The translations under genes were made by a program, and so were the position numbers. 64,000 nucleotides of DNA from Gammaproteobacteria bacterium (GTDB lineage Bacteria > Pseudomonadota > Gammaproteobacteria > GCA-001735895): the NCBI GenBank assembly GCA_050298595.1, contig JBNKUM010000094.1:160001-224000 (forward strand), given 5' to 3'. The notes beneath the pieces were generated by a model. That model worked only from the letters and a program-made list of their open reading frames with translations. It made no database searches and was not told where the DNA came from. How positions within the stretch are numbered: the stretch's first letter is position 1; each line of letters starts with the position of its first letter. Below, in pieces: positions 57,397-64,000 of this stretch.

Positions 57397-59439
57397 ATGA
57401 AAAAAATGCTAATTTTACTGATGATTCTGTGGTGCTTGCCCGTCTGGGCTGAAGATCAGGTTCCCGGCGGTTTTATTGAAGCTGAACATCAGGGAAAGAA
57501 GATCCTGTTTCCATTATTGAAATCCCATTACCAGGTCGATATCCAGGGCGACCTGGCCCAGGTGACCCTGGAGCAGGACTTCCAGAATCCGACCGGTATT
57601 CCACTCAATGCCAGCTACCTTTTTCCCTTGAATAAGGACGCCGCCGTGCATGCCATGCACATGCAGGTAGCGGACGAACTGGTCGAAGCCAGGATTCGCC
57701 GCCGCGAAGAGGCCAGGAAAGCATTTGCCGAAGCTAAGGTGCAGGGTAAATCTGCCAGTTTACTTGAACAGCATCGCCCCAACATGTTTACCCAACAACT
57801 GGCCAATCTCATGCCGGATATTCCCATCCATATTACTTTGCAATATGTACAGCATATTAACCGGGTGGACAGCCACTATGAGCTAGTCTTGCCACTCATT
57901 GTGGGGCCCCGCTACCAACCGGAACAAACACAACAAAAGACCATCAAGCGAGTCGGCATGTGGCAGTTGGAGGCATTACCAGCCTATCCCTCAGTGGCTG
58001 GGCTGAACCTGCCCAAAGAAATTGAACAAGAGCGGGTGAGCATCGAGATTACTTTAGACGGTGGAATGCCTATCTCGGCTGTTTCCAGCCCGACTCACGG
58101 CATAGAGATCAAATCAGTGGATGAACAGCAAAGGCGCATCAGTCTTAGCAACGGTCGCACCATCGATAACCGGGATTTTGAATTGCACTACCGTTTAGCT
58201 GGAGAACGGGTACAGGCTGGTTTGCTGACCCATGAAAATGAGCGTGGCCGCTTCTTTAGCCTGTTACTGGAACCGCCAGCTATACCCCAGAGCGAGGCCA
58301 TCACCCCGCGTGAGATGGTGTTTGTGCTAGACACCTCTGGCTCCATGTCCGGTGACCCGCTTAAGGCCAGCAAAGCTTTCATGCAGCAGGTGTTGCACCA
58401 CTTGCGGCCCAGTGACCATTTTCGCATCATCGACTTCAGCAACAGTCCCAGGGAATTCCATGCCAACCCGTTGCCAGCAACCGCTGAGAATCTGCGTCTC
58501 GGTCAGGCTCATATCCAGGGCTTTAAAGCCGGTGGCGGCACCGAGATCGATAGTGCTATCAAGCAGGCCCTATCAGTACCAGCGATGCAAAACCATCTAC
58601 GCATCGTAGTATTTCTGACCGACGGTTACATCGGTAATGAGCACAGCGTACTACAACGCATCCAGTATTTGCGCGGTAATGCCCGTATCTATGCCCTGGG
58701 TGTCGGTACCGCTGTTAACCGCTACCTGTTGGATGAAATGGTGCGGGCAGGTCAAGGCTTTGTGCGCTATATCGACCCTACCGAGGAAGTGGAAGGTGCC
58801 GCCCAGCGCTTTGCAGAGCGCTTGCGTACGCCGGTGCTGACCGATGTTAGTATCGACTGGGGCGATACCAGGGTCGAGCAGGTCACACCTGCGCAGCTGC
58901 CTGACCTCTTTACCGGCGATTCTCTGCGTCTGCTGGGCAAGATCAAGCAGGTGGGTCAGAAGCCCATCAAAATTCTCGGACGCATCAATGGGCAGCAGGC
59001 TACTTTGCCGCTCAAACTTCAGTTCGATGAGCAAGCAGCAAATCAGGGCCAGGCGATTCCCCTGATCTGGGCCAGAAGCCGGATTGCCGATCATATGCGA
59101 GAAATGACGTTGCCGAATGATCGCCGCTCTTCGGAACTGCCTGATAAGGCATTGAAAGAAAAGGTGACCCAATTGGGGTTGGATTATTCCCTGATGACGC
59201 GTTGGACCGCTTTCATCGCCGTGTCGCAGAAGATCTACAATGAACAGCCCGCTGCGTCTAAGGATGTTTCGGTTCCCCTGCCCATGGTCAAGGGTGTCAG
59301 TCAAAAGGCCTATCCTAAACAAACTCAGCAGTTTCATGGCAGCTCAGCGCCGGAGGCTGAAGAGGGCCTGCTGTTGCTGATGTTGGTCTTGGCTGGGTTG
59401 TACTGGTGGCAGCGTCACCAGTATGGAGAAATGCTTTGA
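57397..59439 (+). CDS. VIT and vWA domain protein with a PEP-CTERM-like sorting signal
   Basis: Signal peptide, YLFPL, DTSGSM MIDAS, LTDG, C-terminal APEAEEGLLLLMLVLAGLYWWQR. Confidence 0.9.
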   Translation: MKKMLILLMILWCLPVWAEDQVPGGFIEAEHQGKKILFPLLKSHYQVDIQGDLAQVTLEQDFQNPTGIPLNASYLFPLNKDAAVHAMHMQVADELVEARIRRREEARKAFAEAKVQGKSASLLEQHRPNMFTQQLANLMPDIPIHITLQYVQHINRVDSHYELVLPLIVGPRYQPEQTQQKTIKRVGMWQLEALPAYPSVAGLNLPKEIEQERVSIEITLDGGMPISAVSSPTHGIEIKSVDEQQRRISLSNGRTIDNRDFELHYRLAGERVQAGLLTHENERGRFFSLLLEPPAIPQSEAITPREMVFVLDTSGSMSGDPLKASKAFMQQVLHHLRPSDHFRIIDFSNSPREFHANPLPATAENLRLGQAHIQGFKAGGGTEIDSAIKQALSVPAMQNHLRIVVFLTDGYIGNEHSVLQRIQYLRGNARIYALGVGTAVNRYLLDEMVRAGQGFVRYIDPTEEVEGAAQRFAERLRTPVLTDVSIDWGDTRVEQVTPAQLPDLFTGDSLRLLGKIKQVGQKPIKILGRINGQQATLPLKLQFDEQAANQGQAIPLIWARSRIADHMREMTLPNDRRSSELPDKALKEKVTQLGLDYSLMTRWTAFIAVSQKIYNEQPAASKDVSVPLPMVKGVSQKAYPKQTQQFHGSSAPEAEEGLLLLMLVLAGLYWWQRHQYGEML

Positions 59440-59567
59440 GGGTTTACTAAACCGGGTCGAGAATAATGTAGGTCAGATACAAATATATAAATATTGCGTG
59501 TACAAGACTCCAGTTATGTAGGTGAAAAATGCATGTTGATGAGGGGCACCCATTAAGGGGCAGGGGG

Positions 59568-60173
59568 TCAGGTTGAACCAGCGGCTATGACCCTGGATAT
59601 CTGCATCATTTTATCCTTTTCTTTTTGATCCAGATTTGAGTAGATCATCAAAATCTCCTGAAGATCATCTGGAAAGTAGGCGCATAGGCCATCTAGCTCC
59701 ACATGCTGTTCATCCATCCAGTTGCGGGATTTTTTTAGCTGCTTTTCGATTTTACGACATAATTTATCCTGAAGTTTCAGGAAGGGATTATCCAGGTGTT
59801 GCTTGAATTCTGAAGGTTTCAGCCCGGTAGTTTTTCTAAGTGCCGTGACTTCTGTTTTATTTAAAGATTTTACCAGTTGGCTCAGGTTCTGATGACGAAT
59901 AGCCTGAAGATCGCGCTCACCAGACCCTATGCTACCTAAACCAAACTGAATCCAGCAGGGATTAATTTTAGTGACTTCGGCTATCTTCAATATGTCCTGA
60001 GAGGCGGGCATAGAGATGCCCTGCTCATAGTTACCCAATCGGCTGACACTCCATTCAGGAGTCGCCTGTATAAATGCTGCGCGCGTCTTAAACCCCGCCA
60101 TTTGCCGGGCCTGTTTAATTCGTGCACCGACCTGTTTTCTAAAATCATCAGTAGTAGTATTTTTTTTGGTCAT
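59568..60173 (-). CDS. XRE family HTH transcriptional regulator
   Basis: GARIKQAR...RLGNYEQG...INPCWIQFG and a second HTH-like region RHQNL...CRKIEK...WMDEQH. Confidence 0.85.
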   Translation of the reverse strand: MTKKNTTTDDFRKQVGARIKQARQMAGFKTRAAFIQATPEWSVSRLGNYEQGISMPASQDILKIAEVTKINPCWIQFGLGSIGSGERDLQAIRHQNLSQLVKSLNKTEVTALRKTTGLKPSEFKQHLDNPFLKLQDKLCRKIEKQLKKSRNWMDEQHVELDGLCAYFPDDLQEILMIYSNLDQKEKDKMMQISRVIAAGST

Positions 60174-60181
60174 AATAAATA

Positions 60182-60238
60182 ACAAGAATCTTGTAATTAG
60201 TGGTTGACAGCTTGTAATGCTTCATTATACTACGCAGC
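60182..60238 (+). promoter_or_regulatory. sigma70 promoter of the tRNA/ncRNA array with candidate operators
   Basis: TTGACA 60204-60209, 16 bp spacer, TATACT 60226-60231; CTTGTAAT at 60190 and 60211; palindrome ACAAGAATCTTGT. Confidence 0.75.
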
Positions 60239-60267
60239 AATTCTTAATTCTGATTAATTTTAAAGGT

Positions 60268-60384
60268 ATGCATCATTTATTCATTTCAACGCAGAAGCAA
60301 CTCAGTATCAGCCCCCAGGCTGTGCCTATGTGTGAGTGGATATGTATATCTTTTGATAATGAGTATAAGACAGTAGATTTTTGA
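60268..60384 (+). CDS. Putative leader peptide 1 (38 aa)
   Basis: MHHLFISTQKQLSISPQAVPMCEWICISFDNEYKTVDF; stops just before attenuator 1; weak RBS. Confidence 0.45.
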   Translation: MHHLFISTQKQLSISPQAVPMCEWICISFDNEYKTVDF

Positions 60385-60393
60385 CTTTCTATT

Positions 60394-60470
60394 TTGGAAG
60401 GTCAATGGCACCTTCCGAGCAAAAATTAAAAACCCGGTTTGTGCTAAACAAGTCCGGGTTTTTTTATGCC
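60394..60470 (+). terminator. Attenuator 1 (alternative hairpins plus terminator)
   Basis: GGAAGGT/ACCTTCC stem; terminator AAAACCCGG...CCGGGTTTTTTT containing GTGC complementary to the upstream GCAC. Confidence 0.7.
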
Positions 60471-60545
60471 GGGAGAAAGGGAAACCAGAGATACTACATA
60501 ATTGACAAGGGGTGCTCTAGTTATTCACAACTAGAGGAATATGAA

Positions 60546-60659
60546 ATGTCTGTAAAAAACAAGACTATAGATAGAGAGCTCTATGGTTGTGTTAAAAGAA
60601 AATATATAGGGCCATGGTCAACATATTGGTTAGTGTTAACAGACCCTGGGTCAAGCTAG
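60546..60659 (+). CDS. Small ORF (37 aa) between the attenuators
   Basis: GAGGA RBS; MSVKNKTIDRELYGCVKRKYIGPWSTYWLVLTDPGSS. Confidence 0.35.
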   Translation: MSVKNKTIDRELYGCVKRKYIGPWSTYWLVLTDPGSS

Positions 60660-60829
60660 ATATGACACGGCCAGGAAGAAGGGAAAATAAATGTTGCTGT
60701 ATTGCAGTAACGAAGGGGAAGGATCCAGATGGTCTGGTATTCCCTTTGGGTAATCACCGACCCCATGAATATTACTGGTGAGTGACTGGCGTAATAAGCT
60801 ATTGAATAAATTTAGGAGCAAAGTTTTTA

Positions 60830-61006
60830 GTGAACATGTTATCGATAAATAGAGCTGTCTGGCCGGTGATTTATGTATCGCCAACAGCCCAGTTGCGCCC
60901 TGAGTTTATGGGCAAGCAGCTCTGTATATCCGCTCTGTATATAAGCAATGCGCCCAGGAACCTGGAACAGAATCATTTTGATTCAAAGGGTATTGGTAAA
61001 ACGTAA
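60830..61006 (+). CDS. Putative leader peptide 2
   Basis: AGGAG RBS, GTG or ATG start, MLSINRAVWPVIY...KGIGKT; stops before attenuator 2. Confidence 0.5.
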   Translation: MNMLSINRAVWPVIYVSPTAQLRPEFMGKQLCISALYISNAPRNLEQNHFDSKGIGKT

Positions 61007-61022
61007 TTCTCCATGAAAGTCC

Positions 61023-61110
61023 TTCGGAGGGTTGCAGTAATAACAAGCACCTCCGAGAGTTTAAAAAACCCCGGTTGTGCTTGAGAAGGCACCCGGGGTT
61101 TTTTTATGCC
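61023..61110 (+). terminator. Attenuator 2
   Basis: TCGGAGG/CCTCCGA stem; CAAGCAC/GTGCTTG antiterminator pairing; terminator AAAAACCCCGG...CCGGGGTTTTTTT. Confidence 0.75.
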
Positions 61111-61113
61111 CCC

Positions 61114-61148
61114 ACACCGGCGTTCCCGGTGTTAATGATCTTTGACAA
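61114..61148 (+). promoter_or_regulatory. boxB-boxA-like antitermination signal
   Basis: Hairpin ACACCGG-CGTTC-CCGGTGT followed by TGATCTTTGACAA (rrn boxA is TGCTCTTTAACAA). Confidence 0.6.
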
Positions 61149-61269
61149 TTTGGAATCACGCAATGCCACCGGGAAACCGGTGGCCGGGCGAAACACTGAA
61201 GTAATCAGTCAGTTGTTTTGTCGCGGACATTTGTCTGCGATATGTCGAACCCATCGACCGCCCACAACT

Positions 61270-61344
61270 GCAGATATAGCTCAATGGGTAGAGCGACGGC
61301 TTTCCTGGCCGAGGACCCCAGTTCGATTCCGGGTATCTGCTCCA
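61270..61344 (+). tRNA. tRNA-Gly(TCC), atypical
   Basis: Cloverleaf, loop TTTCCTG, U73, CCA; T-stem mismatch. Confidence 0.8.
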
Positions 61345-61424
61345 GATTCGCCTGCTTGCAGGCAAATGCCTGGCATTCTTGTCCCGAGATGCCGGTGCAG
61401 CGACACATCGGGTTCCCATGATGG

Positions 61425-62283
61425 ATAAGCCGGACATCCAGTGTAGTCGGCAGTGTCATCAGACCGCGTGAGGTCTTTACGATAATTGATGGCGACATCG
61501 AAAAAGGGGGAATGCCTGCATACCCTCGCCGGGGCAACTCGGTCGATTTACGCAAGCCCAGTCCTCTACGTCTTCGGGTCGCTCGGAGATACTGATAAAG
61601 GGATGCATGGTAATTAAGGATGCCGGGCGGCTAAAACCGTGGTATTCGAATGTTTTCGTGACTGTTAACGCCATGGGTCAACATCTCGTTTCAGGAGGGA
61701 TGAAGGGTGCACTTTTAGTCCGAGCCGTCAGGTTAGGGCGTTAGTGAAGTTTGAAGGGTGAGGGCAGTGGCCCAGATCCTGAAAAACGGTCAAGTAGCGG
61801 GATACGTGAAAGACATGGGGTGTGTGGCATTTTTGTCCTCAAAAGGGACTGGAACCACCGGAGTACGCACATCCTGGCAGGTTGTTGAAATAGCTCAACT
61901 GGTAGAGCAATTACCTCTTAAGTAATGGGTTTCAGGTTCAATTCCTGATTTCAAGGCAAACAGAAAATGGAAAGACGTACTCCAGCGTTAAGTGAAAGTG
62001 ACCTAAGTCTCGGCAGCTTGCTGAACCGAGAAGGGTTTGAGGCCCCAAGCCAATAACCCGGGTACCGAATCGCATCAATGGGCCGGACAGCTCAGAGAGT
62101 AGATGAAGTGCCGAGTAGCTTAGCGGTATGTAGGTATTGCCACCTACTCAAACAAGGCGGTTACGAAGGTTTACCATGATGCCAAGAAAGGGGGCATGGT
62201 GGATAAGCTGGGAAACAGCGGGTGGAACCGACTGATAATCCAGTGAAAGGATCTTCATAGAGGCTGTAATCTCAGGCCTTATT
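61425..62283 (+). ncRNA. Probable GOLLD-type large structured RNA with an embedded tRNA
   Basis: About 860 nt without a credible sense ORF, inside a tRNA array; 5' GCCGGACATCCAGTGTAGTCGGC and 3' CGAGTAG...TCAAA...GTGGATAAG...ATAATCC...GCTGTAATCTCAGGC resemble GOLLD ends from memory; boundaries approximate. Confidence 0.62.
61884..61956 (+). tRNA. tRNA-Lys(CTT)-like domain inside the large RNA
   Basis: Perfect D, anticodon (CTCTTAA) and T arms; 1:72 G-G mismatch; no CCA. Confidence 0.75.
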
Positions 62284-62285
62284 CT

Positions 62286-62361
62286 TCCCTGATGGCGTAA
62301 ATGGTGAACGTAGCTGACTGTTAATCAGAAGTTTCGGGTTCGAATCCTGATCGGGGAGCCA
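62286..62361 (+). tRNA. tRNA-Asn(GTT)
   Basis: Loop CTGTTAA, G73, CCA. Confidence 0.88.
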
Positions 62362-62367
62362 GATATT

Positions 62368-62451
62368 GGTTGTACTGAGCATTGGTGGGCTCACCTGGCT
62401 GTAACCCAGACTCCTCTGGACGTGATGGTTCGACTCCATCTGCAACCACCA
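62368..62451 (+). tRNA. tRNA-Tyr(GTA)
   Basis: Loop CTGTAAC, long variable arm, A73, CCA. Confidence 0.88.
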
Positions 62452-62565
62452 GACAAAAAAATCATGAGAGCAAACTGCAGACACTCTCGATATCGATTGA
62501 TAAAAGCGGCGTTGGCCGTGAATTATCCCCTGGCTAATTCCTGAAACGGCGAGGGTTAGATTTAT

Positions 62566-62642
62566 GCGTCCGTAGTATAACTGGATATTACACCGGACTT
62601 TTAATCCGGCTAATGCGAGTTCAACTCTTGCCGGACGTACCA
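62566..62642 (+). tRNA. tRNA-Lys(TTT)
   Basis: Loop CTTTTAA, CCA. Confidence 0.88.
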
Positions 62643-62648
62643 TTTTAT

Positions 62649-62723
62649 TGCTCTGTAGCTCAATGGTAGAGCCCCCGGCTGATAACCGGAAGGTAGTGGG
62701 GTCAGTACCCACCAGAGCAACCA
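62649..62723 (+). tRNA. tRNA-Ile(GAT), atypical T-loop
   Basis: Loop CTGATAA, T-loop GTCAGTA, CCA. Confidence 0.85.
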
Positions 62724-62798
62724 GTTTGTTATGTTCCCAGGCTCTGGACAAACGATATTCCTGCGAGCCAGGCTGCCCGACAATCGGGCTCAAATTAC

Positions 62799-62873
62799 AC
62801 TCCCGTGGATTAATGGTGAGATCGACAGACTTTCAATCTGTAGGTGAGGGTTCAATTCCCTTCGGGAGTACCA
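62799..62873 (+). tRNA. tRNA-Glu(TTC)
   Basis: Loop CTTTCAA, CCA. Confidence 0.88.
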
Positions 62874-62878
62874 GATAT

Positions 62879-62952
62879 GGGGTCATAGTTAAGTTTGGGC
62901 GAGTGCCTGTTTTACAAGTTGATTATTGCCAGTTCGATTCTGGCTGGCTCTA
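62879..62952 (+). pseudogene. Decayed tRNA with Ala-type body (G3:U70) and TAC anticodon
   Basis: Acceptor GGGGTCA/TGGCTCT, intact T arm, broken anticodon stem, CTG instead of CCA. Confidence 0.65.
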
Positions 62953-63091
62953 CTGAATGTGCCTACCTTGTTAGCTACAGGAAGGTCATCACACCACAGT
63001 CAGCACAGAGGGGGGCTGAATAGCAGCGAGGCTGCAAAACGGTGCGGTAAAAGTCCGAAGTTTCGTAACACAACAGTAACGGAGGTATCCA

Positions 63092-63262
63092 ATGAATCAC
63101 TATCGTAAATTTGAACGTGCAGTTCAGGATATGAATATCCCGAAAAACCGCAAGACTGCCAACCCAGCTAATGCGAGTTGGTTCTTAAGGTCAGGAGTAG
63201 CCTACAACCGTGATCACGACAAGATCATGACGGCGATATTCCATGCGCGCAATATTTCTTAA
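63092..63262 (+). CDS. Small protein (56 aa) inside the tRNA array
   Basis: GGAGG RBS; MNHYRKFERAVQDMNIPKNRKTANPANASWFLRSGVAYNRDHDKIMTAIFHARNIS. Confidence 0.7.
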   Translation: MNHYRKFERAVQDMNIPKNRKTANPANASWFLRSGVAYNRDHDKIMTAIFHARNIS

Positions 63263-63266
63263 CAAT

Positions 63267-63344
63267 GGTGGGTATAGCTCAGTGGGTAAGAGCGCCGGGT
63301 TGTGACCTCGGAGGTCATCGGTTCAAGTCCGATTATTCACCCCA
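63267..63344 (+). tRNA. tRNA-His(GTG)
   Basis: G-1, loop TTGTGAC, C73, CCA. Confidence 0.9.
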
Positions 63345-63410
63345 AACAAGGACTGCTTTAACTTCCCCCAGGGATTGGTGGATACAGACCCGGAGTTAAA
63401 GCACCAATTT

Positions 63411-63487
63411 ATCCTGATGGCCAAATTGAATAAGGCAGCGGTTTATGAAACTGGAGAATGCAGGTTTGACTCCTGCTCGGGATACCA
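63411..63487 (+). pseudogene. Atypical tRNA with ATG anticodon, probably decayed tRNA-Arg(ACG)
   Basis: Loop TTATGAA, Arg-like D-loop, T-loop TTTGACT, CCA. Confidence 0.65.
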
Positions 63488-63496
63488 AATCATTCT

Positions 63497-63573
63497 GCCG
63501 GGGTGATGGAATTGGCATACATGCTTGTCTTAGAAACAAGATTTTGCGGGTTCAAATCCCGCCCCCGGTACCA
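63497..63573 (+). tRNA. tRNA-Leu(TAG) with short variable loop
   Basis: Loop CTTAGAA, 5-nt variable loop ATTTT, A73, CCA. Confidence 0.88.
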
Positions 63574-63579
63574 GTTCAA

Positions 63580-63656
63580 TAGCGATTAACTCAGCTGGTT
63601 AGAGTGCCAACCTTACCAGTTGGATGTCGTGTGTTCGAATCACACATCGCTAACCA
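63580..63656 (+). tRNA. tRNA-Val(TAC)
   Basis: All stems paired, loop CTTACCA (C37 atypical), CCA. Confidence 0.82.
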
Positions 63657-63657
63657 C

Positions 63658-63734
63658 GGCAAAGTGGCTGAAATGAAAATGGCGCAAACCTCATAAGATT
63701 GAAAATGCCGATTTAATCCCGGCCTTTGCCTCCA
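63658..63734 (+). pseudogene. Degenerate tRNA-Met(CAT)
   Basis: Paired acceptor, loop CTCATAA, degraded D- and T-loops, CCA. Confidence 0.65.
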
Positions 63735-63740
63735 ATATTT

Positions 63741-63815
63741 AGCGAGATAGACCTAATGTTAGAGCACCGGGTTCATTTCCCCGAAGACCCGGTTTAGATT
63801 CAAAATTTCGCTCCC
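63741..63815 (+). pseudogene. Decayed initiator-type tRNA-Met(CAT)
   Basis: AGCGAGA/TTTCGCT acceptor, GGG/CCC anticodon stem, T arm destroyed. Confidence 0.55.
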
Positions 63816-63821
63816 GATTAT

Positions 63822-63899
63822 CTGGGTGTAGCTCAGTCTGGTCAGAGTTCTTGCCTTGGAAGCAAGATGCCGTTGGTTCGAATCCAACCACCCAGACCA
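63822..63899 (+). tRNA. tRNA-Pro(TGG)
   Basis: C1-G72, loop CTTGGAA, A73, CCA. Confidence 0.92.
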
Positions 63900-63904
63900 A
63901 ATAT

Positions 63905-63979
63905 GCGGATGTAGCTCAACGGTAGAGCATTGCCCTGTCAAGGCAGAGGTCGTGGGGTCAGTACCCATCATTCGCGCCA
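63905..63979 (+). tRNA. tRNA-Asp(GTC), atypical T-loop
   Basis: Loop CTGTCAA, T-loop GTCAGTA, G73, CCA. Confidence 0.88.
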
Positions 63980-64000
63980 GATTCTACGAAAGGAAAAGTC

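Follow-up and report, generated by a model that had tools for sequence, protein, structure and literature searches.

Putative tandem ribosome-dependent attenuators upstream of a tRNA-GOLLD RNA array in a gammaproteobacterial genome

The DNA analyzed here, called the window below, is a stretch of 64,000 nt from a Gammaproteobacteria bacterium (GenBank assembly GCA_050298595.1, contig JBNKUM010000094.1, i.e., G000:C94:160001-224000). The genome has a size of 5.49 Mb in 119 contigs, with 45% G+C. A compact island was found in the window, in which two related RNA units stand in series upstream of an array of transfer RNA (tRNA) genes and a GOLLD RNA gene. The island is ordered as an XRE-type regulator gene on the minus strand, a plus-strand promoter, unit 1, unit 2, tRNA-Gly, GOLLD, further tRNAs, and an HNH endonuclease gene. 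The two units and their likely role in the control of the array are the subject of this report.

Transcription of the units would start at a single sigma-70-type promoter, TTGACA-16-TATACT, at 60204..60231, which matches the consensus at 11 of 12 positions. This promoter and the features that follow it are on the plus strand. The leader open reading frame (ORF) of unit 1 was located at 60268..60384 and has 38 codons (MHHLFISTQKQLSISPQAVPMCEWICISFDNEYKTVDF) with a TGA stop codon. Unit 1 itself, 60382-60465, comprises five RNA segments, i.e., segments 1, 2, and 3 and the 5' and 3' arms of the terminator (T5' and T3'). Segment 1 (UGACUUUCUA, 60382..60391) includes the stop codon of the leader and pairs with 60395-60404 in RNA that ends before the T3' arm. 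Segment 2 (UUGGAAGGUCA, 60394..60404) has segment 1 or segment 3 as its partner, and segment 3 (GCACCUUCCGAG, 60408..60419), unique to the two units in the genome, has segment 2 or the T5' arm. The hairpin between segments 2 and 3 is formed by 60394-60403 and 60408-60418. The intrinsic terminator T1 (60428..60465) was assigned by repeat search and folding, with its stem at 60428-60458 and a run of seven T at 60459-60465.

Unit 2 (61004-61105) has the same plan. Its leader ORF (60830..61006) has 58 codons, starts with GTG, and ends with ...NLEQNHFDSKGIGKT before a TAA stop codon; AGGAG is found upstream at 60814-60818. Segment 1 (UAAUUCUCC, 61004..61012) again includes the stop codon and pairs with 61026-61034. 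Segment 2 was placed at 61023..61034 by folding, and segment 3 (CAAGCACCUCCGAG, 61044..61057) can be partnered with segment 2 or with 61065-61083. The hairpin 61023-61034/61044-61057 is followed by the terminator T2 (61063..61105, by repeat search and folding), i.e., a stem at 61063-61098 and seven T at 61099-61105. The size of the module is approximately 250 nt.

The initial annotation, made from the sequence alone, had described two homologous attenuators in series. The observation was confirmed, as both units were detected as repeats (D1 and D5) and as stable folds. In the repeat search, a 25-nt stretch was 80% identical and a 15-nt stretch 100% identical between the units. The fold of unit 1 had an energy of -31.7 kcal/mol (z -5.18) and that of unit 2 had -41.3 kcal/mol (z -4.33); none of 200 shuffled sequences was as good in either case. 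As for the likeness of the units, GCACCTYCCGAG was confined to the two units in the genome-wide search, and this part of the claim stood. The common tail GGGTTTTTTTATGCC did not add to it, being a generic terminator tail with 12 genome sites at one mismatch or fewer, both units counted. A covariance model of the module matched the genome only at units 1 and 2, with 57.7 and 66.2 bits, both units being members of the model seed. The repeat search also returned a 19-nt imperfect complement, which is the alternative GCAC/GTGC pairing of the initial annotation.

Three other genomes of the genus have the complete 1.1-kb leader region at 87-92% identity (alignment A1). The promoter, both hairpin-terminator modules, and everything from approximately 60700 to the first tRNA are nearly invariant across the four genomes, and many insertions and deletions were found at 60486-60515 and 60636-60695. 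In unit 2, substitutions in segment 1 of G001 and G011 preserve the pairing. The leader-region DNA was present in four of 13 other genomes of the genus that were searched, with G012 matching at terminator 2 only (E 9.3e-4). Two distant loci, in G012 (same genus, different sequence) and in G186 (another family of the class), have the same plan, i.e., a homologous regulator gene, a promoter, an ORF, CCUUCC/GGAAGG/CCUUCC segments, a terminator, and tRNAs. The G186 locus has 25 tRNAs and GOLLD.

The inter-unit stretch (60546..60781) would be transcribed only if T1 is read through, and its frames are open in some genomes only. Frames for peptides of approximately 37 and 55 aa are fused in G010 and G011 and shifted by insertions or deletions in this genome and G001. 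The stretch 60700-60830 between the units is almost invariant.

The family was gathered with the regulator protein as the query (alignments A2 and A3). In the genome collection, 14 regulator loci were found, all in Gammaproteobacteria metagenome-assembled genomes labelled Ectothiorhodospiraceae, Chromatiales, Methylococcaceae, or Thioalkalispiraceae. From the metagenome collection, the best 80 of 126 regulator relatives were used. In viral contigs, the regulator gave a single weak partial match. By a scripted search, 75 of 91 loci (L017-L107) have a terminator on the divergent strand relative to the regulator gene. Among the 16 loci without one, 11 have less than approximately 420 nt of upstream DNA, and two more, L023 and L083, were recognized afterwards with the RNA model; L022, L070, and L105 had neither a scripted terminator nor an RNA-model match. 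The scripted terminator of L027 was a false call and was dropped, and the remaining loci gave 65 distinct 130-nt sequences after removal of nine duplicates. Alignment A4 holds 65 sequences, i.e., units 1 and 2, G186, and 62 of the 65 distinct loci, with L025, L028, and L092 left out as too divergent.

The RNA model alone, run on 79 genomes of the order, found matches in 11. Six new matches were fetched, and all six adjoin a regulator homolog; three of the six have co-oriented tRNAs in the approximately 1.5 kb examined. Regulator homologs flank the RNA module in all the other loci. By the RNA model, tandem units were found in four further independent loci (L028, L090, L107, and L027). In three tandem loci that were read, the second ORF starts soon after the first terminator with its own Shine-Dalgarno-like motif and no obvious promoter. 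From these sequence comparisons, the module is apparently a widespread and previously undescribed family. It recurs in the three close relatives, the two diverged genomes, approximately 10 further metagenome-assembled genomes, and the majority of the 80 metagenome loci, most often ahead of tRNA arrays and at times ahead of RtcB.

Covariation analysis of homologs, proposed as a check in the initial annotation, was done for two folds that exclude each other. The terminating fold consists of helices 2:3 and T5':T3', and the competing fold of helices 1:2 and 3:T5'. In the 65 sequences, 92.4% of the cells of the terminating fold were paired, 15 of 22 pairs had changed on both sides, and 113 cells had changed on both sides. 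Its covariation score was 0.297 versus a shuffle mean of 0.149, which none of 500 shuffles reached, and 0.068-0.098 for slid controls. The competing fold had 83.3% of cells paired, 14 of 21 pairs changed on both sides, and 107 such cells; it scored 0.268 versus a shuffle mean of 0.177 (0/500) and slid controls of 0.074-0.092. Taken separately, helix 3:T5' was 79.6% paired with 7/12 pairs changed on both sides, and helix 1:2 was 88.1% paired with 7/9. All four helices thus covary. The GCAC:GTGC pairing corresponds to the antiterminator helix 3:T5' and shows covariation across the family (columns 125-128 with 170-173). L042 was the source of the structure strings, a choice that favors the measure of paired cells and not that of compensatory changes.

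Of the 66 distinct loci in the family, 60 have an ORF with 30 codons or more (mean 57.6), which terminates 72-108 nt upstream of the T-run and has a stop codon that abuts segment 1. The last sense codons of these 60 leaders encode Gly (38/60), Met (47/60), and Thr (36/60; ACC 19, ACG 13, ACA 4), followed by TAG (23), TGA (21), or TAA (16). The C-terminal motifs D.NE.GMT and NEQ.KSY.S.LGMT are common to sub-groups. Because the residues are conserved with free third positions and free choice of the stop codon, as translation predicts, the leader ORF of the family is translated, judging from its sequence signature; for unit 1 alone the signals are weak. A Shine-Dalgarno-like 4-mer was found 4-15 nt before 38 of 60 leader starts versus 10 of 180 control windows. 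Within helix 1:2, the final base of the stop codon is paired and covaries, with A-U in 30 and G-C in 24 sequences (columns 80/110).

Both leader ORFs of the window are open in all four related genomes, and that of unit 1 has no insertions or deletions. The unit 1 leader ends with ...FDNEYKTVDF-TGA, the ...DNEYKT part of which aligns with the family end ...D.NE.GMT. An additional G in the aligned sequence puts the ancestral stop codon out of frame, and the frame continues two codons further into segment 1. The unit 2 leader ends with ...NLEQNHFDSKGIGKT-TAA, i.e., GGT AAA ACG TAA versus GGT ATG ACN stop in the family, and resembles family ends such as ...NEQNKSYASELGMT. Across the four close genomes, variable sites by codon position numbered 6/8/9 in unit 1, which is uninformative, and 6/7/11 in unit 2, which is weak.

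Neither window leader has a run of a single amino acid, as had been noted in the initial annotation. The leaders are diverse in composition. The mean number of distinct amino acids per leader was 18.58, versus 17.02 +/- 0.17 in windows of equal length from the long ORFs of this genome. All 20 amino acids occur in the unit 2 leader (P = 0.033), and 18 occur in the 38 codons of unit 1 (P = 0.087). One divergent relative, L025, has 11 His and 11 Leu among 53 leader codons, in front of two tRNA-His and two tRNA-Leu genes, which is a classical match of leader codons to product. A general stalling sensor would fit the amino-acid diversity of the leaders and also L025.

The switching of the units was examined in silico. 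The RNA from the stop codon onward folds as helix 2:3 and the terminator. In RNA ending before T3', helices 1:2 and 3:T5' were formed in most of the 11 loci first examined, both window units included. In transcripts ending 45 nt after the stop codon, the partner of segment 1 was segment 2 in 47 of 60 loci and upstream RNA in eight; in the other five, neither was a clear partner. In RNA ending before T3', at least 60% of the T5' arm was sequestered in 50 of 61 cases with segment 1 free, versus 12 of 61 with 13 nt from the stop codon blocked. A ribosome with a stop codon in its A site covers approximately 10-13 nt beyond it. This footprint coincides with segment 1, and together with the drop in T5' sequestration it suggests that a ribosome on the stop codon would favor termination, and a late ribosome read-through. 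Unit 1 switches in the predicted way, i.e., the free RNA forms 1:2 and 3:T5' at -20.0 kcal/mol, and the blocked RNA retains 2:3. The crude measure of T5' arm sequestration fails for the window units (0.5 versus 0.6, and 0.92 versus 0.92), so both were inspected; unit 1 was then seen to switch, and the thermodynamics of unit 2 to be ambiguous. The full-length RNA of both units prefers the terminator, at -30.5 and -41.3 kcal/mol.

It is reasonable to consider each unit as a ribosome-dependent transcription attenuator composed of the five segments. A ribosome that follows closely behind the polymerase and reaches the stop codon would hide segment 1. Helix 2:3 and the terminator would then form, and transcription would end. 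With a ribosome that falls behind or stalls at any point of the ORF, helix 1:2 would form first, segment 3 would capture T5', and the polymerase would read through. This direction of the switch is deduced from the folding and the geometry. The two units would act in series on transcripts from the promoter at 60204-60231. We infer that the signal is a general slowing of translation, i.e., translational stress, and that the response is the supply of spare tRNAs and GOLLD RNA. The units contain what is expected of attenuators, i.e., an ORF with a translation signature, an intrinsic terminator, a conserved and exclusive antiterminator, and a stop codon inside the switching segment. The initial annotation had proposed general ribosome-stalling attenuators, and the conserved ORF end, the stop codon in the switching helix, and the covariation of both folds support that proposal. 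Overall, a probability of roughly 0.7 is given to the reading that the units are ribosome-dependent five-segment attenuators in series that control the tRNA-GOLLD array by sensing slowed translation.

Several observations weigh against this reading. The ATG of the unit 1 leader has only AAGG 1 nt upstream and no good Shine-Dalgarno sequence, and the AAGG is not kept in relatives. Substitutions in this ORF among the four close genomes have no coding pattern (3 synonymous versus 23 non-synonymous). The window leaders are not a checklist of the array, as Phe, Ser, Thr, and Ala codons, which make up 11 of 38 in the unit 1 leader, have no cognate among the 18 tRNAs typed by ARAGORN. In four metatranscriptome runs from four studies, contigs over 59500-64000 fell on GOLLD and the tRNAs only and none on 59500-61311; as these are contigs and not reads, they are uninformative either way for the leader. 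The aligned sequences are related, and shuffles overstate the significance of the covariation; the slid controls keep the relatedness and are fairer, and are still 3-4 times below the observed scores.

The folding of the RNA gives further points on the same side. In unit 2 RNA ending before T3', the antiterminator (-18.3 kcal/mol) remains more stable than helix 2:3 (-14.4 kcal/mol) even when segment 1 is blocked. By these model energies, the switching of unit 2 must be kinetic, i.e., set by the order of folding, or else the unit is leaky. In 27 of 60 loci, the full-length minimum-energy folds pair segment 1 with upstream ORF sequence. A sixth segment could therefore exist, which would reverse the outcome without translation to termination, as in trp and his leaders. 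No conserved candidate for a sixth segment that pairs with segment 1 was found, and no covariation test was run on one.

The XRE-type helix-turn-helix regulator gene lies at 59568..60173 on the minus strand, divergent from the leader. It encodes 201 aa from an ATG at 60173, and the listed ORF runs to 60185. The protein showed weak matches to HTH_31/HTH_3, to DicA, and to 7t8i, an Xre-family regulator of ICEBs1. Defense-system models returned nothing for the regulator and generic HNH matches only for the endonuclease. An operator-like palindrome, ACAAGAATCTTGTAAT, was found at 60182..60197 (+), the sole exact match in the window to the pattern from other loci, and a further CTTGTAAT at 60211-60218 (+) lies between the -35 and -10 hexamers. 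Palindrome-like repeats stand at the equivalent place in L017, L018, L023, L024, and L028. The regulator presumably binds the palindrome, and the promoter, whose hexamers are invariant in the four genomes, is probably repressed by this divergent protein. Beside the regulator gene in two metagenome loci, a group II intron domain (L078, 4452-4628) and a cspA thermoregulator (L045, 5256-5555) were also seen, both probably unrelated.

Downstream of T2, a CACCGG/CCGGTG hairpin and then a boxA-like sequence, GATCTTTGACAATTTGGA, were found at 61115..61154 (+), with the boxA-like part at 61137-61154. The latter matches GCTCTTTAACAA at 10 of 12 positions. A consensus for boxA is known from the rrn operons of E. 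coli, where it has a role in Nus antitermination. Of 53 related loci, 26 have a boxA-like site with at most one mismatch to GCTCTTTAACAA in the 700 nt that follow the first terminator, versus 0 of 53 on the opposite strand, and the site always comes after the last terminator, by approximately 40-120 nt. The window copy has two mismatches to the 12-mer and is alone not above chance, as five such matches occur in the window versus 6.4 expected; its start, 38 nt after the T2 T-run, agrees in position with the related loci. The arrangement of a hairpin and a boxA-like sequence, immediately behind the last terminator and ahead of long untranslated genes, resembles rrn-type boxA/Nus leaders. The rRNA leaders of this genome had no clear boxA copy, and its rRNA operons are possibly unassembled. 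We infer that, with this site, the polymerase probably withstands Rho while it transcribes the untranslated tRNA-GOLLD array.

An independent promoter after T2 had been named in the initial annotation as an observation that would speak against a double lock on the array. A consensus scan, which detects sigma-70-like sites only, found no promoter-like site on the plus strand from 60232 to 62496, and the boxA-like sequence 38 nt after T2 leaves no room for one. Because of this lack of promoter-like sites, transcription of the array most likely requires that the polymerase reads through both terminators. The double lock is also in line with the recurrence of tandem units in four loci.

The array (61270..64000 in the window, plus strand) begins with tRNA-Gly at 61270-61344 and continues past the window end to approximately 64658. 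ARAGORN predicted 18 tRNAs and Rfam matched two further tRNAs in approximately 3.4 kb. The array has the features of an L-array, i.e., many tightly packed, co-oriented, supernumerary tRNA genes with a patchy distribution. GOLLD RNA (RF02032) was found at 61817-62278 with 166.7 bits (gathering score 150) and an embedded tRNA-Lys. ARAGORN also gave a tRNA-His with the anticodon ATG at 63411-63487, beside a normal tRNA-His (GTG); this anticodon is unusual for bacteria. A candidate ochre-suppressor tRNA at 62879-62952 was dropped, as the Rfam alignment puts UAC at the anticodon position. The HNH endonuclease gene (HNH_5) closes the array at 64571-65290 (L001 5571-6290). A similar HNH gene follows the leader in L018, and the HNH core resembles Cas9/IscB and PtuB.

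Metatranscriptome contigs from wetland, rhizosphere, root, and salt marsh (the four studies) match 61361-62263, which spans from just after tRNA-Gly to just before tRNA-Asn. Three contigs of 876-891 nt fit this interval end to end with approximately 98% identity. Because of this fit, the full GOLLD RNA here is taken to be approximately 900 nt, about twice the Rfam match, and it seems to accumulate as a piece excised between tRNAs, with the limit that contigs cannot prove RNA ends. GOLLD was found in two of 151 genomes of the class, and in none of 20 other loci of the attenuator family, in which the flanks were examined. In the description of the GOLLD family, the RNA has an embedded tRNA and tRNA neighbors and is often found in prophages, according to the text of PMC5737381. 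The GOLLD here matches the family in the tRNA features, but its setting is a small chromosomal island that lacks phage genes, and it stands behind two attenuators.

To the left of the island, position 59439 marks the end of host-type genes that encode an exosortase and a VIT/VWA protein, and ordinary chromosomal genes resume after the HNH gene. A prophage context was considered and rejected, since the flanks encode an exosortase, a VIT/VWA protein, an aldo-keto reductase, pilin-like proteins, and alpha-2-macroglobulin. No phage genes were seen in or around the island, the array is closed only by an HNH gene, and the viral contigs gave no more than the one weak partial match to the regulator.

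The genes behind the attenuator differ among the loci of the family. In 46 distinct loci with at least 1 kb of downstream sequence, at least three co-oriented tRNAs were found in 29, one or two in eight, and none in nine. RtcB is encoded by L019, L087, and L092, all among the nine tRNA-free loci. SPFH-domain proteins, HNH proteins, and an unknown protein family were the other cargo. Homologous proteins of approximately 310 aa follow the attenuator in L035 (471-1418), L037 (396-1340), and L038 (2-922), and these had no match in Pfam, NCBIfam, or PADLOC.

The units were compared with known systems. No Rfam family matched them at the gathering thresholds. Matches below threshold were His_leader (28.5 and 17.8 bits for the units, gathering score 49), Phe_leader (17.7 versus 55), Thr_leader (15.9 versus 55), and an unrelated small RNA model. 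Leaders of amino-acid operons (trpL, hisL, thrL, pheL, leuL, and ilv) resemble the units in the short translated ORF, the alternative hairpins, the intrinsic terminator, and the decision by ribosome position. They differ in that the window leaders have no run of regulatory codons, although such a run is present in the relative L025. They have four or six segments, whereas five were found here, and by folding alone the absence of a ribosome would lead here to read-through and not to super-attenuation. Biosynthetic enzymes are regulated there, and tRNAs, GOLLD RNA, or RtcB here, where the switching segment holds the stop codon. Compared with known attenuators, the units are novel in cargo (tRNA array and GOLLD, RtcB elsewhere), in logic (a stop codon inside the switch, five segments), and in partner (the XRE-type regulator).

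In function, the nearest analogs appear to be the upstream ORF (uORF) attenuators of whiB7 and toiL. At the actinobacterial whiB7/wblC uORF, stalling is believed to cause antitermination, and many translation insults activate it, as stated in the text of PMC10274678. The toiL leader of E. coli topAI-yjhQ is presented in the text of PMC12121999 as a uORF attenuator that senses general translation stress. These leaders are from other taxa, and the likeness considered here is one of function. The product there, as given in the same texts, is a transcription factor or a toxin-antitoxin pair, whereas here it is tRNAs, i.e., the substrate of translation, and an RNA repair ligase, with a dedicated XRE-type regulator.

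The L-array of Anabaena (PCC 7120) is the closest case in terms of cargo. According to the main text of PMC8421152, it is silent, induced by translational stress, and co-regulated with rtcB. In the main texts of PMC8421152 and PMC10272220, its control is ascribed to promoter direct repeats and the repressor TrcR, and the words terminator, attenuat-, and leader are absent from these main texts. Both arrays, as far as those texts describe the Anabaena one, hold approximately 20 supernumerary tRNAs in a tight and patchy operon. They share a link to rtcB, as the module here heads tRNA arrays or rtcB. They differ in the promoter repressor TrcR there, and here in an attenuator, doubled in the window, in addition to a repressor-type gene of another family. 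Among the titles and abstracts covered by the literature search, no paper on leader-peptide attenuation of tRNA genes or arrays was found, and literature on GOLLD with tRNA, terminator, and promoter gave no such paper. As far as found, leader-peptide attenuation of tRNA arrays is unpublished.

Other explanations of the units have to be weighed against the attenuator reading. The leader could be an arrest peptide, in which Gly-Met-Thr-stop slows termination or release, or depends on a ligand or on the status of a release factor or tRNA, and the sensing would then be more specific. The last three codons and the motifs D.NE..GMT and NEQ.KSY.S.LGMT are conserved as amino acids, for which a pure speed gauge has no need. 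The rest of the peptide varies freely, the window units have Lys in place of Met, the stop codon of unit 1 is shifted by two codons, and no result points to a ligand or factor, which makes this explanation unlikely. The conserved Gly-Met-Thr-stop, Lys-Thr in the window, is without explanation under a pure speed-gauge model. It may slow termination, and the ribosome would then keep segment 1 covered.

A trans-acting factor, i.e., an RNA-binding protein, a small RNA, or a tRNA on CCUUCC/GGAAGG, could instead select the fold, with the ORF either incidental or in some other role. The module always has a dedicated regulator gene beside it, and the GGAAGG/CCUUCC segments resemble Shine-Dalgarno and anti-Shine-Dalgarno sequences. 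Against this, the neighboring protein belongs to an HTH type that binds DNA, the promoter carries an operator-like palindrome, and the segments are free to covary in sequence, contrary to a sequence-specific binder. Such a factor would also leave unexplained why the stop codon lies within helix 1:2 and why the end of the ORF has a coding signature, and it is considered quite improbable. Plain terminators would end short transcripts, such as small RNAs or mRNAs of small proteins, and insulate an array with its own unrecognized promoter. Both terminators are strong and thermodynamically favored in the full-length RNA, the promoter scan sees sigma-70-like sites only, and the metatranscriptome contigs give no leader transcript. 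A plain terminator has no need of the covarying competing helices 1:2 and 3:T5'. In related loci, the boxA-like site comes 40-120 nt after the last terminator, and in many of them tRNAs begin within 70-200 nt, so that a promoter would have little space; the plus strand at 60232-62496 has no promoter-like site. This last explanation is highly improbable.

The attenuator reading has a meaning for the regulation of tRNA arrays in general. Long tRNA arrays are widespread, horizontally transferred, and mostly silent, and the one studied case is induced by translational stress by way of a repressor at the promoter. With a conserved ribosome-sensing attenuator ahead of them, such arrays would have a second and direct mechanism, in which the speed of decoding is measured and more tRNA is made. 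The same module ahead of RtcB ties it to RNA repair. More tentatively, it is conceivable that Gammaproteobacteria of sediment and salt marsh carry a dedicated mobile module for translation damage. It would be composed of an XRE-type repressor and an attenuator that parks the ribosome via Gly-Met-Thr-stop, and on failure of ribosomes to arrive it would turn on tRNA arrays, RtcB, and, in this lineage, GOLLD. If so, GOLLD, the function of which is unknown, would belong to the response to impaired translation, e.g., tRNA cleavage by toxins or phage defense, and there would be a direct route to induce and study it. The finding predicts a condition of GOLLD production, and the purpose of this RNA would thereby become a testable question.

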